From NCBI RefSeq assembly GCF_003018235.1, contig NZ_CP027437.1: DNA of 64,000 nucleotides; one strand, 5' to 3'. This document shows, piece by piece, positions 1 through 9,000 of this stretch (position 1 is its first letter; each line of letters starts with the position of its first letter). This DNA comes from Escherichia coli (GTDB lineage Bacteria > Pseudomonadota > Gammaproteobacteria > Enterobacterales > Enterobacteriaceae). Made by a program: the position numbers.

Positions 1-3000
1 GGTATCACCACTGGAGATTTGGTTACCAACATCAACCTGCTTGAGACCAACGCGACCATCGACTGGTGCGGTGATGCGGCTCCAGTCGAGTTGCAACTGC
101 GCGCTGGCGACGCTTGCTTCATCAGCCTTAATGGTGCCTTCGGTTTCACTGACCAGCGCCTGTTGGGCATCCAGCTCCTGACGGGAGACGAGATTGGTTT
201 TTGCCAGTTGCTGATAACGCGCCAGATCACGGCGGGCGTTAGCAAGCGTGGCTTTATCTTTTGCCAGTTGGCCCTGGGTTTGTGCTAATGCAACTTTGAA
301 CTGGCTGGGGTCAATTTCTGCCAGTAAATCGCCTGCTTTGACCTGCTGGCCTTCCTGGAAATGTAACGCCATCAGTTGACCATCCACGCGGCTACGCACC
401 GTAACAGTATTAGCAGCGGTAATAGTGCCAAGCCCGGTGAGGTAACGCGGTACTGCCTGTTCTACGGCGGTCGCCGCCTGAACCGGGGCTAATGGGCCGG
501 AACGCATACCACGGCGACCACCCGCTGGCGATTGCTGCGCTTGTTTCGTCGCCCCTGGGGCTGCACTCTGGGAGTCATTGCGGCCTTGCCAGAACCAGAA
601 TGCGGCGATGGCGGCGATAACCACCACGATTACGATTACCCAACGGGATTTATAACTGCCTTTCATCGTTAAGAGTTTCTCTTCCTGAAACGTTTCGCGG
701 AATGATACTAGTGTAGCCAGCCAATAAGGGAGAAAAATGGAGGAATTATGAAACACTATCGGGAATCGTCTGAATGGCGGGCACATTTGCGAGCACGCAT
801 CCAGTAATAACACAGAAAACTATTTTATCTACGCGTTAGCGATAGACTGCTTGCATGGCGAAAGGAGGTAAGCCGACGATTTCAGCGGGACGCTGAAACG
901 GGAAAGCCCCTCCCGAGGAAGGGGCCTTAAATAAGGAAAGGGTCATGATGAAGCTACTCATCATCGTGGTGCTCTTAGTCATAAGCTTCCCCGCTTACTA
1001 AGACTACCAGGGCGGGGGAAACCCCGCTCTACCCTCACTCCTGAAAGTATGCCTTCACGATGAGATTGTCAATCCGCAGGCTTTGTAGTCTGCGATCCTG
1101 CCAGCAAATATTCTTTGCGAGTCGTTACGCAATAATCACAGAGGAAACTATTTTATTCACGCGTTAGCGACAGACTGCATTCAGGGCGAAAGGAGGTAAG
1201 CCGATGATTTCAGCGGGACGCTGAAACGGGAAAGCCTCTCCCGGTGAAGAGGGCTTTTAATAAGGAAAGGGTTATGATGAAGCACGTCATCATACTGGTG
1301 ATACTCTTAGTGATTAGCTTCCAGGCTTACTAAGAACACCAGGGGGAGGGGGAAACCTCTCCCTAACCCTCACTCCTGAAATTATGTCACTCCGCCCTTA
1401 GTGTCAATCGACGGCTCTCCGTTCTTGCGAGGCGAATAGCAAAATTTTCTGCGCCGCCGGGCCTAATTCTGAAAGTTTCTTCGTTTGCTCTTATTTCATT
1501 ATTGCAGTCGGTATGATACCGGACCTCGATAATTCTCTAAGAAAGGATTTCTTATGAGCGAACAAATCACGTTTGCCACCAGCGATTTTGCCAGTAACCC
1601 GGAACCACGTTGCCCCTGCATTTTGCTACTGGATGTTTCTGGTTCTATGAACGGTAGACCTATTAATGAACTTAACGCCGGATTGGTTACCTTTCCTGAT
1701 GAACTGCTTGCTGATCCGCTGGCTTTAAAAAGAGTGGAACTCGGCATTGTGACGTTCGGCCCGGTGCATGTGGAACAACCCTTTACCAGCGCCGCTAATT
1801 TTTTTCCGCCCATCCTGTTTGCCCAGGGCGATACACCAATGGGTGCGGCCATTACCAAAGCCCTGGATATGGTAGAGGAGCGGAAACGTGAGTATCGTGC
1901 AAATGGTATTTCGTATTATCGCCCGTGGATTTTCCTGATCACCGATGGCGCTCCAACCGATGAGTGGCAGGCTGCCGCCAACAAAGTGTTTCAGGGGGAA
2001 GAAGATAAGAAGTTTGCCTTCTTTACCATTGGTGTTCAGGGGGCGGATATGAAGACTCTGGCACAAATCAGCGTTCGTCAGCCTTTGCCTCTGCAAGGAT
2101 TACAATTCCGTGAACTGTTTAGCTGGTTATCCAGTTCGCTGCGTTCGGTTTCCCGCTCCACGCCGGGAACGGAAGTTGTGCTGGAAGCGCCAAAAGGCTG
2201 GACGTCAGTGTGAGCTGGCGTCTGGTTTATGCATCCGCTGTTGGAACATCGCACATTAGTGCTGATTTGCCTTGTCAGGATGCCTGCCAGATGCAGGTTG
2301 TCTGGTTAAACGACCAGCAACCATTACTGGTGATGTTCCTTGCTGATGGCGCAGGTAGCGTTTCGCAGGGAGGAGAAGGCGCGACGCTCGCCGTCAATGA
2401 AGCGATGGCGTTTATGGTGCAAAAAGTACAGGACGGTGAATTGGGGCTTAATGATGTCCTCGCCACAAATATGGTACTGACTATTCGTCAGCGACTTTTT
2501 GCCGAGGCGGAAGCCAAAGAATTAGCAGTTCGCGATTTTGCCTGCACGTTTCTGGGATTGATTTCATCGGCTAATGGCACCTTGATTATGCAGATTGGCG
2601 ATGGCGGCGTGGTGGTGGATTTTGGTCACGGTCTGCAATTGCCGCTTACGCCGATGGTGGGTGAATATGCCAATATGACGCACTTCATTACCGATGAAGA
2701 TGCCGTTTCCAGACTGGAAACTTTCACCAGCACTGAGCGTGTGCATAAAGTTGCAGCATTTACGGATGGTATCCAGCGACTGGCGTTAAATATGTTGGAT
2801 AATTCTCCGCATGTGCCTTTCTTTACCCCGTTTTTCAATGGACTGGCGTCAGCAACGCAGGAACAACTCGATTTATTACCTGAATTGTTAAAGCAGTTTT
2901 TGTCCAGCCCAGCGGTAAACGAGCGTACCGATGATGATAAAACGTTAGCACTGGCGCTGTGGGCAGAGTGAGTTTCTCATGGCGGTTGAAGACAACAATT

Positions 3001-6000: not shown

Positions 6001-9000
6001 CGATAGCTTAAACGCTGACGCCAGACTTTCTGTAGCAGGGCCACTTTTTCCGGTTCGCGGGCATCGCGTACCAGATCGTTAAGCAGACGACCGTTGGCAC
6101 TACTGTAGAAATCACTCTGCGCAGGTACGTCGTTGATGGCAACCGCATTCCACCACGGCAGAATCGGCAGGGCGATGCCTTTTTCGGTTTCGCCACCCAT
6201 GCCCAGTAACGGCATCAGGATTTTAAACGCCAGTGCGATGTCCAGATCGTTACCGCCAATACGGCAACCACTGTGACCCAGCAGGCTGGCTTCACGATCG
6301 AGACGCGAACGCCACTGCGGCCCCATCAGCAGCAATGAACAGTCAGTCGTACCACCGCCGATATCCACCACCAGCACCCGTTTTTCTTCCTGCAAGGTGG
6401 CTTCGTAATCCAGCCCAGCCGCGACCGGCTCGTACTGGAATACCACGTCCCTGAATCCGGCACGCTTCGCCGCGCGTTCCAGAATCCCTTGCGCCTGGGT
6501 GTTTGCTTCATCACCGCCCAGCCCCTGGAAGTTGATCGGGCGACCAATCACCGCCTGAGTAATCGCTTCTGGCAGCTGCGCCTGCGCCTGCTGGCGAATG
6601 TGCAACATCATTGCGCAGACCAGATCCTCAAACAGCGCTACCTGCTGCGGTTTTAAGCCGCTGGCACCGAGGAACGATTTTGGTGATTTCACAAACCACA
6701 CTTCTTCTGGATCATAAATGTACTGTGCCAGTGAGGAAAGACCGAACTGCACGCTTTTCGCCGTAACATCGATATCTTCTTCGCGGTTATAACGAATCGC
6801 CCGACGTAACAGCGCCTGCGTTTCATCGTCGTCTGCCGGAACATCATGATGGCGGTACAGCCATTCACTTACTGCTTCACGCGTTGGCGCGCAAAGCATT
6901 GAAGGCAGCAGCGTGCTGTCGTTTTCCATTTTCAGTAATTGCGGTTTACCGTCACGCATGACCGCCACTGAACAGTTTGCTGTACCGTAATCAAAACCAA
7001 TAAACACGAATTAATCCCCATGCCGGTGAAGAAGGGGCGTGACTTTAGCGAAATGTTGCCGTCGCGACAACCGGAATATGAAAGCAAAGCGTAGCGTCTG
7101 AATAACGTTTATGCTGAAAGCGGATGAATAAGGAGATGCGATGTATACCCTGAACTGGCAACCGCCGTATGACTGGTCGTGGATGTTGGGATTTCTCGCC
7201 GCCCGTGCAGTGAGTGGTGTGGAAACGGTCGCTGACGATTATTATGCCCGTAGTCTGGCGGTGGGCGAATATCGCGGCGTGGTGACTGCTATTCCGGATA
7301 TGGCCCGTCATACTCTGCACATAAATTTAAGTGCAGGTTTAGAACCTGTTGCCGCTGAGTGTCTGGCGAAAATGAGCCGCCTGCTTGATCTGCAATGTAA
7401 CCCGCAGATTGTTAACGGTGCGTTGGGCAAGTTAGGCGCGGCCCGGCCCGGATTGCGTTTACCCGGCTGTGTTGATGCTTTTGAGCAGGGTGTGCGGGCG
7501 ATTTTAGGCCAACTGGTGAGCGTGGCGATGGCGGCAAAATTGACTGCCAAAGTGGTACAGCTTTATGGCGAACGGCTGGATGATTTTCCGGAGTATATCT
7601 GCTTCCCGACGCCTCAGCGGCTGGCAGCAGCCGACCCGCAGGTATTAAAAGCGTTAGGTATGCCGTTGAAACGGGCAGAGGCGCTGATTCATCTGGCAAA
7701 TGCGGCGCTGGAGGGCACCTTACCAATGACAATACCGGGCGATGTGGAGCAGGCGATGAAAACGCTGCAAACTTTTCCGGGTATCGGGCGCTGGACGGCG
7801 AATTATTTCGCTTTGCGTGGCTGGCAGGCGAAAGATGTTTTTCTGCCGGATGATTATCTGATTAAACAGCGATTTCCGGGGATGACACCGGCACAAATCC
7901 GCCGTTATGCCGAGCGCTGGAAGCCCTGGCGTTCTTATGCGCTGTTGCATATCTGGTATACGGAAGGCTGGCAACCAGACGGAACGGACGAATTGTAGGC
8001 CTGATACGTCGCATCAGGCAATGGGCAAACGCTCCCTCAGTTAATCGCGAAATAACTGCTATTCACCAGCAAATCCAGCGGTTGGGCATCGGCAATCACA
8101 TCACCATAAATCAGATCGACGCCGATGCCAGAAAGCGTATCCATCACTAAGGGTAAAACGACTGGCCCGGCGATGGTTTTCATCCCGAGTCGCTGAGCGT
8201 GCCCCTGAATAATCGTAATCAGCATCTCATCCATCAAATTACCCTGCACGTTGGCGCATAACTCACCATCAAGTAGCAGGTAATCTGCCATATTCGCTTT
8301 CAGCGAGTTGAAGATTTGCAGATCGCGGCCCACCTGGCTGAGCACTATCCGACATCCCGCCAGCCGCAGTTTTTGCACGCTTTCTGCGTGATCTAAAATC
8401 GCGTCTGCCGGAATAATCAGATGTAATAACCGTGGTGGTAGAGGGCTATTTTCCAGCTGCTCAAGCAGATCATTCACCAGCGTGGCGCTACTCAAACCGG
8501 CAACGGAAAGGGGGAGGGCGATGCTTATGCCTTTACTGGCAACCGCTTTTGCGGCCAGCTGGAAAAATTCGTGGAATACCCGTCGGTCAAGAGCATAGCT
8601 AAGTGCCGGATCGCTGAAGCTACGACGAAATTTTTGTTCAACAATAATCTCGCCTTCGCAACTCCAGAGTTTAAGCGAAATCAGCCACAAATTACGCGCT
8701 TCCGGGATCCGCGGCGAAGCGACACCGTGGGCCATCATCATCAACTGATTCTCTTTAATCATCCGCCACTGTTCATCAAGCGACATCGCCGCCCGTTCGC
8801 TATGTGCGGCAGCTTGCTGTGGTTCGTAAACCGTCACCCGGCCCCGTCCACCATTTTTGGAGGCATAACAGGCGATATCAGCCTGCGACATCACTTCTGC
8901 CGCCTGATGATTGTTGTCATCAATCAAGGTAATCCCGGCACTGGCACCTACCCGATGCACACGGCCTTCCCATATAAAGTGATAATCATTCACGGCACTG

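Follow-up and report, generated by a model that had tools for sequence, protein, structure and literature searches.

The locus considered here lies near the beginning of a 64,000-nucleotide stretch of Escherichia coli contig NZ_CP027437.1 (assembly GCF_003018235.1), hereafter called the window, which runs in the reverse orientation relative to K-12. It comprises yegL (1554-2213, + strand), encoding a TerY-like vWA protein of 219 amino acids (aa); pphC, also named yegK (2210-2971, +), which begins with a GTG codon and encodes a minimal PP2C-type Ser/Thr phosphatase of 253 aa; yegJ (3036-3497, -), encoding a DUF2314 protein of 153 aa with a probable Sec signal peptide; yegI (3697-5643, +), encoding a Ser/Thr kinase of 648 aa; and yegD (5655-7007, -), encoding an Hsp70/actin-like ATPase of 450 aa. 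An earlier account drawn from the DNA without database searches (the sequence-only reading) had placed these open reading frames (ORFs) at the same positions, which also agree with how RefSeq annotates the most similar E. coli genome, that of strain 2013C-4830 (98.7% identity over 8 kb). The 4-nt overlap of yegL and pphC to which it drew attention is the GTGA at 2210-2213 (+), shared by the stop of the first gene and the start of the second, and is a conserved feature of translational coupling. Its divergent arrangement of yegJ and yegI is likewise found, across an AT-rich spacer of 199 bp, and yegI and yegD are convergent with a gap of 11 nt. The Hsp70-like nature of YegD is confirmed by the NF008673 equivalog (806 bits). 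As that account also held, the sequence is not novel, being an annotated and partly characterised E. coli locus, and its physiological role is poorly defined (bioRxiv 303594; bioRxiv 819920). The comparisons reported here point to a three-gene TerY-P-like cassette, yegL-pphC-yegI, and not to the five genes, as the functional unit.

In conservation YegL far exceeds the other two components of the triad. Its homologues across phyla share a median identity of 63% with the window protein, while the median is 39% for PphC in the same loci and the kinases of more distant loci are 35-40% identical. The protein matches Pfam VWA (E=3e-10) and retains an intact MIDAS metal-binding site (D27-x-S29-x-S31, T94 and D131), the residues of which are invariant also when TerY1-3 are included in the alignment. 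Invariant as well is a Ser-rich last helix and tail, W191-L-S-x-S-x4-S-x-S-x-P-G (W191, S193, S195, S200, S202 and P204-G205), of which W191, S195 and S200 are retained in TerY1-3. A structural model of YegL (pLDDT 87) has the classic MIDAS vWA fold, like ANTXR2, vWF-A3 and the integrin I-domains, and the Ser-rich motif is located on its last helix and tail. In integrin I-domains the last helix is allosterically coupled to the MIDAS site. The TerY-C metal-binding domain is absent from YegL. PphC in turn matches PP2C_2 over 204 of the 209 profile positions (E=2e-49), and is enzymatically active as an Mn-dependent PP2C, with phosphorylated YegI as a substrate (bioRxiv 303594).

The N-terminal part of YegI (3697..4596, +; about aa 1-300) is a kinase domain with a divergent eukaryotic-type (ePK) fold. 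It has a glycine loop (G22-G27), K41, the catalytic residues D143 and N145, D204-x-F206-G207 and R289, with D161-S-D163 in place of DFG and P186-E187 (PPE) in place of APE. The glycine loop, K41, P186-E187, D204-x-F206-G207 and R289 show little or no variation in the family alignment. The catalytic loop reads VGDVNQNS, and neither a canonical HRDxKxxN nor a DFG is found, a departure already described by Rajagopalan & Dworkin (bioRxiv 819920). Pfam Pkinase does not match E. coli YegI, and a single-sequence search of the PDB with the kinase domain returned nothing. A profile built from 32 YegI-family sequences, however, matched TTK (E=3e-6) and PknE (E=8e-4), as well as RSK and B-Raf, within a range of 3e-6 to 3e-3, and PF00069 is present in some family members. 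The label of Hanks-type kinase given earlier is thus apt for the fold, through the PDB profile matches and the conserved motifs, but not for the catalytic loop and DFG, which are non-canonical. Together with the domain matches of YegL and PphC, the family profile of YegI bears out the identification of a vWA, PP2C and Ser/Thr kinase triad. YegI has been characterised as an active, Mn2+-preferring Ser/Thr kinase which autophosphorylates serines of its activation segment with second-order kinetics, and as an inner-membrane protein that crosses the membrane twice and has both its termini on the cytoplasmic side (bioRxiv 819920).

Downstream of the kinase domain follows a zinc-ribbon-like CHCC motif (4621..4677, +), C309-x5-H315 ... 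C324-P-W-C327; its four residues C309, H315, C324 and C327 are invariant in all 32 sequences, down to 33% identity. After a variable proline-rich linker comes the membrane hairpin (4870..5022, +; about aa 392-442), two hydrophobic helices with a loop of six residues between them, and a hydrophobic anchor occurs at this position in 31 of the 32 family members. The C-terminal region is probably a DNA-binding (HhH)2 domain (5233..5421, +; about aa 513-575), with the hairpins GVGPARKAAL and GFGDHLT and flanking coiled-coil helices. Three weak but concordant matches point in this direction: Pfam HHH_5 (E=9e-4, below the Pfam cut-off), the HhH2 domain of L32e (E=0.07) and, in Foldseek, the N-terminal domain of Rad51 as the best local match (probability 0.96, E=0.5). 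The C-terminal 194 residues were modelled with a pLDDT of 94. Residues 131-193 of this model form the long helix with which the protein closes (5449..5643 with the stop codon, +), ending in a conserved LAQAxADL.

A tblastn search of plasmids with YegL retrieved three TerY genes per IncHI2 plasmid, in the ter clusters, in one of which the order is TerW, TerY1, TerX, TerY2, TerY3 (with TerY-C), a PP2C of 545 aa and a kinase of 499 aa. YegL is 29% identical to TerY3 (BLASTP, E=2e-21), PphC shows a weak match to the PP2C of that triad (25% identity over 148 aa, E=1e-5), and the YegI profile aligns with the TerY-P kinase over residues 6-340, CPWC falling on CPYC (hhalign probability 98.8%, E=1.3e-16). 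As each of the three proteins matches the IncHI2 triad, the E. coli triad is a homologous member of the same kind, and on these alignments yegL-pphC-yegI is very probably a TerY-P-type cassette. The comparison with stress or defence modules offered by the sequence-only reading was therefore well aimed, as all three proteins are homologous to the TerY-P triad of ter clusters. Since the locus was already known, the TerY-P-like classification with an HhH-type architecture is a refinement and not a discovery.

The likeness to the ter-cluster archetype, exemplified by the IncHI2 plasmid pMCR1_WCHEC-LL123, extends to the order vWA, PP2C, Ser/Thr kinase, to the zinc-ribbon motif after the kinase and to the MIDAS residues and last-helix motif (W191/S195/S200) of the vWA proteins. 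The E. coli triad differs in its shorter PP2C (253 against 545 aa), in the lack of TerY-C in YegL, in the additional membrane hairpin, coiled coil and (HhH)2 domain of YegI, in the lack of TerD, TerX and TerW nearby, and in being chromosomal and core in the species whereas the archetype is plasmid-borne. As a stand-alone three-gene vWA/PP2C/kinase cassette it also resembles the anti-phage TerY-P systems of Gao et al. (2020) and the P. aeruginosa variant of Costa et al. Such triads are reported to protect against T7-like or Autographiviridae phages while most cells are not killed (PMC7699616; bioRxiv 2022.08.12.503731). The kinase of the Gao-type system ends in an OB fold, by the description given in PMC11090510, whereas YegI carries the hairpin, coiled coil and (HhH)2 domain. 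Among the top YegI-family matches listed there is no P. aeruginosa homologue by which the variant of Costa et al. could be linked to the YegI type. The TerY-P kinase associated with CoCoNuT systems carries a zinc ribbon (PMC11090510), but the YegI C-terminus continues past this element and, unlike in the McrBC-related Type II and III-A CoCoNuTs, no conserved neighbours of any kind accompany the triad in E. coli or in the sampled loci. In common with the Hanks kinase/PP2C pairs (PknB/PstP, PrkC/PrpC, Stk1/Stp1), a kinase is encoded together with a PP2C that takes it as a substrate, and activation involves activation-segment phosphorylation and dimerisation (bioRxiv 303594; bioRxiv 819920). Unlike these pairs, YegI lacks an extracellular sensor such as PASTA, only the six-residue loop of the hairpin being outside, its catalytic loop is VGDVNQNS with DSD for DFG, and the system has an obligatory vWA partner and the distribution of a horizontally mobile cassette.

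This distribution was examined by a profile scan of one genome per species in GTDB, which yielded at least 540 YegI relatives, and the loci discussed below are the best 80 of these. They belong to Gamma-, Beta- and Alphaproteobacteria, Paenibacillus, Clostridiales, Georgenia, Acidobacteria, Pirellulales, cyanobacteria, Synergistaceae, Desulfobacterota and archaea (Methanoregula/Methanomicrobiales). In 73 of them the kinase gene is directly preceded, on its own strand, by genes for homologues of YegL and PphC, and the seven loci without a complete triad are mostly on short contigs or at contig ends. No neighbouring gene family is common to the related loci across lineages. The triad is an autonomous, self-contained cassette across bacteria and archaea. 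An exhaustive search of 50%-identity cluster representatives gave 3265 proteins at E<=1e-30; nearly all of the top 150 are 640-655 aa long and can be aligned over their whole length, down to 35% identity. A PP2C start that is in frame and produces the 4-nt overlap with the vWA gene is available in 58 of the 73 homologous loci, from many phyla, and the overlap of yegL and pphC is for this reason not a matter of chance. The PP2C stop and the kinase start are at most 15 nt apart in 53 of the 73. Adjacency in the order vWA, PP2C, kinase and in one direction is also found in O157:H7 and E. marmotae; the window keeps the order, interrupted by an insertion that carries yegJ.

A conserved fourth gene or effector was considered and rejected, as only lineage-specific neighbours were found. 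A TetR gene overlaps the 3' end of the kinase gene in Competibacteraceae. In Burkholderia, Paraburkholderia and Caballeronia an ORF of 167 aa overlaps the kinase stop by 4 nt (L070 11875-12378; also in L037, L043, L061 and L072); it has no Pfam or PADLOC match and is possibly a lineage-specific fourth component. Some Burkholderiales-type loci have two extra, lineage-restricted genes directly upstream of the vWA gene, one for a secreted staphylococcal-nuclease homologue and one for a very basic protein of ~70 aa, MKFGMR...GWGWLTNPK (L005 5719-6474; L008 5700-6501; L012 8143-8469; L023 760-1376).

One way to understand a TerY-like triad is as a Ter-type module for metal or tellurite stress, in which the MIDAS site of YegL would sense metal and the kinase and phosphatase would relay the signal. 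TerY-P triads were first described in Ter-dependent stress systems (Anantharaman, Iyer & Aravind 2012), with a hypothesised metal-sensing switch, as cited in PMC11090510, and YegL shares its invariant residues with the homologous TerY1-3 of IncHI2 ter clusters. In none of the 80 loci, however, is a TerD-family ORF found within 10 kb, and the annotation of the window region shows none close to the triad; YegL does not have the metal-binding TerY-C; and the HhH-type C-terminus of the kinase is indicative of nucleic acid rather than of metal. A metal-stress role is therefore very improbable.

The surroundings of the triad in related enterobacteria show how the locus was assembled. In Salmonella enterica and Citrobacter freundii the order is asmA-dcd-udk-dgcE-alkA-yegD-ibs-mdtABC and the triad is absent, while YegD orthologues in Citrobacter, Salmonella and Leclercia are 86-90% identical. 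In E. marmotae the order is mdtA-yegL-pphC-yegI-yegD-alkA, the three triad genes being contiguous, as they are in O157:H7. The nearest YegI relatives outside Escherichia, in Klebsiella, are ~62% identical, those of Betaproteobacteria are equally close (~60%), and the occurrence is patchy. By gene order and similarity, the triad was acquired horizontally by the Escherichia lineage, where it entered between yegD and ibs. The ‘block’ thus consists of three evolutionary layers: an ancestral yegD, the inserted triad and a secondary yegJ insertion.

The last of these, the yegJ cassette (2963..3747), comprises 785 bp with 37% GC and stands in place of 50 bp at the contiguous pphC-yegI junction, its limits being taken from alignment of the junction with O157:H7 and E. 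marmotae. It contains a terminator hairpin, yegJ, divergent promoters, a new C-terminus of PphC and a divergent but homologous 5' end of yegI. The last codons and stop of pphC lie within it, and the C-terminus they encode is unlike that of the contiguous form. Between the convergent pphC and yegJ a perfect 10-bp inverted repeat, GGCGGTTGAA-N8-TTCAACCGCC (2981..3008), was found by reading the sequence and is a probable bidirectional terminator, although a simple terminator scan did not report this hairpin. The sigma-70 promoters are ATGATA-17-TACAAT for yegJ (3601..3573, -) and TTGTTA-18-TATAAC for yegI (3652-3681, +). For the yegI-yegJ spacer, a divergent pair of constitutive sigma-70 promoters has been listed together with an H-NS site (Shimada 2014, PMC3946193), and both hexamer pairs of that study are present in the window. 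As the cassette splits the operon, the kinase of the window is transcribed from its own H-NS-associated promoter and is uncoupled, in transcription as well as in translation, from the vWA and phosphatase genes, whereas pphC and yegI overlap by 4 nt in the contiguous form. The insertion of yegJ therefore breaks an ancestral operon instead of completing it.

The cassette is found in 1933 of 5426 complete E. coli genomes (36%) at 90-100% identity, and B strains are without yegJ (bioRxiv 303594; bioRxiv 819920). In strains carrying yegJ the first ~17 codons of yegI (3697-3747) have kept their homology to the contiguous form but differ from it strongly (MKTNIKVFTSTGELTTLG in the cassette form, MKPTLYTATGECVTPG in the contiguous form), which suggests that the cassette was brought in by recombination, its source being a diverged triad locus in which yegJ was already present upstream. 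A search for the donor gave no candidate: plasmids do not carry the cassette, and the only DUF2314 relatives seen were distant ones. YegJ is not present in E. marmotae, nor is there a homologue in any of the 80 related loci, and yegJ is a passenger of the insertion and not a conserved partner of the triad. The description of YegJ as secreted holds in so far as its N-terminal segment, MKKILLMLSLLFFTTAGFS, looks by eye like a Sec signal peptide.

These patterns bear directly on the sequence-only reading, in which yegL, yegK, yegJ, yegI and yegD form one functional block with YegJ and YegD acting in the kinase/phosphatase pathway. The five genes are physically adjacent, yegI and yegD converge closely, and a 2026 study, in which two-hybrid assays showed YegJ binding to the N-terminal half of RNase E, found that overexpression of yegJ strongly induces yegD, leading its authors to speculate on a common pathway (PMC13232886). 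The membership of YegJ is nevertheless contradicted by its position on a low-GC insertion that most E. coli genomes and all 80 related loci lack, and its apparent signal peptide fits poorly with the cytoplasmic kinase and phosphatase domains. The co-occurrence of the five genes, proposed as a gene-neighbourhood check, fails for YegD too, which is a vertically inherited enterobacterial protein encoded without the triad in Salmonella and Citrobacter, and which among the 80 loci is found near the triad only in two from Escherichia. The phyletic patterns largely refute the five-gene block, and it can be regarded as improbable.

Within E. coli, at a coverage of at least 80%, yegI is found in 5401 and yegL-pphC in 5410 of the 5426 genomes (>99.5%). 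The dN/dS of all three triad genes is 0.05-0.16 relative to O157 and E. marmotae, which denotes purifying selection, and from this and their near-universal presence the genes are functional. Diversifying selection was rejected at the level of whole genes on the same values. The yegL-pphC segment (1554-2962) is unusually polymorphic for a core region: 3168 of the 5426 genomes are 90-95% identical to the window and 11 reach >=99%, while most are 95-99% identical in yegI. The dS of pphC is 0.18, about twice that of the flanking genes (0.07-0.09). This polymorphism could reflect ancient haplotypes linked to the insertion or deletion of yegJ, or introgression. Structural variants occur as well. In strain 19-5 (NZ_CP047010.1) the first 34 nt of yegL adjoin the last 108 nt of yegI, a clean natural deletion of the triad, and other strains have IS3 or IS1 insertions within the locus. 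An E. coli protein cluster of 602 aa (P0035) combines a PP2C_2 domain with 74% of YegI, matched at 93% identity, and has the appearance of a natural fusion of PphC to YegI, made where stop and start overlap in the contiguous form.

Such stability might be expected if kinase and phosphatase were a housekeeping pair for Ser/Thr signalling, with the vWA protein as adaptor, serving endogenous physiology (stationary phase, envelope or DNA repair) and having no role towards phage or mobile DNA. Consistent with this, the triad belongs to the E. coli core, is found at the same site in E. marmotae, is under strong purifying selection and has many homologous loci situated among metabolic and regulatory genes. 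Also in agreement are the weak stationary-phase expression and the recurrent yegI mutations in long-term evolution (bioRxiv 819920; bioRxiv 303594), and the finding that YegL and YegI raise DNA damage on overproduction (‘DNA-damage-up’ proteins; bioRxiv 354589). A purely housekeeping function is less easily reconciled with the patchy phyletic distribution and absence from the same site in Salmonella and Citrobacter, the full-length relatives in archaea, Firmicutes and cyanobacteria, the movement of the cassette as an autonomous unit with no conserved neighbour, the homology of all three proteins to TerY-P, and the location of several loci inside defence or mobile-element islands. On balance it is a serious but rather unlikely explanation.

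The islands in question are of diverse composition. The Klebsiella locus has GmrSD, a type I restriction-modification (RM) system, BrnA and SymE nearby; that of Piscinibacter has genes for BrxR, JetB, a McrA-like protein and an SLFN helicase; and that of Chromobacterium has AbiH, a KAP NTPase and a Tn7-like element. Among 148 immediate neighbours sampled, families of the Gabija, Mrr, PIN and JetA types are present as a minority. This association of related loci with defence genes, for which no background rate was compared, is suggestive. Three PHROGs (phrog_28389, phrog_37072 and phrog_37888) are near-identical to YegL, PphC and the 646-aa YegI, respectively; as the phage genome collection contains no such triad, they are probably host DNA in prophage predictions.

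Several observations weigh against a protective or DNA-sensing role. Many related loci lie among ordinary housekeeping genes, and in E. coli the triad is core, positionally stable and under purifying selection, which sets it apart from the usual accessory defence islands. The locus has no known phage or stress phenotype, the searchable literature contains no link between yegI and phage, and the triad has no recognisable effector domain. Expression under laboratory conditions is barely detectable (bioRxiv 303594; bioRxiv 819920; PMC13232886). The HhH assignment relies on three matches, each of which is weak alone, and DNA binding, the phosphorylation of YegL and the choice of acceptor serines are all predictions from sequence. 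A weaker point is that PADLOC does not recognise the E. coli triad: the TerY model of PADLOC 2.0 matches YegL with E=0.015 (12.8 bits) and PphC has no match. This negative result is uninformative, or nearly so, because the archetypal IncHI2 triad fails the same models, which are evidently narrow. Taking these points together with the defence contexts, a defence or DNA-sensing function is tentatively favoured, at somewhat less than an even chance.

A mechanism can be outlined around what others have established, namely a kinase tethered to the membrane, with autophosphorylation in trans, and a cognate PP2C that removes the phosphates (bioRxiv 819920; bioRxiv 303594). The cytoplasmic HhH/coiled-coil region of YegI may detect a nucleic-acid cue at the membrane, for example entering phage DNA or abnormal DNA, and this detection would drive dimerisation of the kinase and its trans-autophosphorylation. 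The activated kinase would then phosphorylate YegL, for which the Ser cluster on the last helix provides candidate sites, and possibly other targets. Phosphorylation of YegL may alter what its MIDAS site binds, and PphC would reset the switch. As its output the switch would most likely protect the cell from phage or mobile DNA, in the way reported for other TerY-P triads, or else evoke a response to DNA stress; an anti-phage output is proposed because of the homology to TerY-P, the phage protection reported for other such triads, and the defence-island contexts and neighbours. Taken whole, as a horizontally acquired TerY-P-type phospho-switch including the putative DNA-sensing and protective mechanism, this account may equally well prove right or wrong.

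The flanks of the locus consist of mdtA and two Sib/Ibs toxin-antitoxin repeats upstream, and of alkA and dgcE downstream. Two SIB antitoxin RNAs (930-1072, - and 1259-1407, -; Rfam RF00113, 141 and 150 bits) stand opposite Ibs toxin ORFs directly upstream of yegL. Their number varies by strain, with two copies in the window and in 2013C-4830 and three in O157:H7 strain 4276, and their position is the insertion point of the triad relative to Salmonella and Citrobacter. The dgcE gene (yegE; 8037-11354, -; 1105 aa) is intact in the window and annotated as frameshifted in 2013C-4830 and O157:H7 strain 4276. The GC content of the 64-kb window (47.5%) is low for E. coli, which suggests further low-GC islands downstream.

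As a sequence finding the locus is ordinary. With at least 540 loci among GTDB species representatives, methanogenic archaea included, a bolder and rather doubtful proposal is that YegI-type triads constitute a very widespread, never-benchmarked immune family of membrane-anchored DNA-sensing kinases. E. coli would then possess the system as a core gene set, T7-like phages would be restricted in B- and O157-type strains by their intact operon, the K-12-type yegJ insertion in 36% of genomes would rewire or disable it, and the deep allelic divergence of yegL-pphC would be the mark of balancing selection. Independently of this proposal, K-12-type strains have the split operon and B- and O157-type strains the intact one, and the vWA protein with its Ser-rich last helix comprises the most constrained parts. 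The cassette as a unit, the form of the operon and the constraint on YegL thereby suggest which strain backgrounds, mutants and phages (T7-like) are worth testing. If a role in defence or DNA sensing is true, it would provide an annotation for thousands of uncharacterised bacterial and archaeal homologues.

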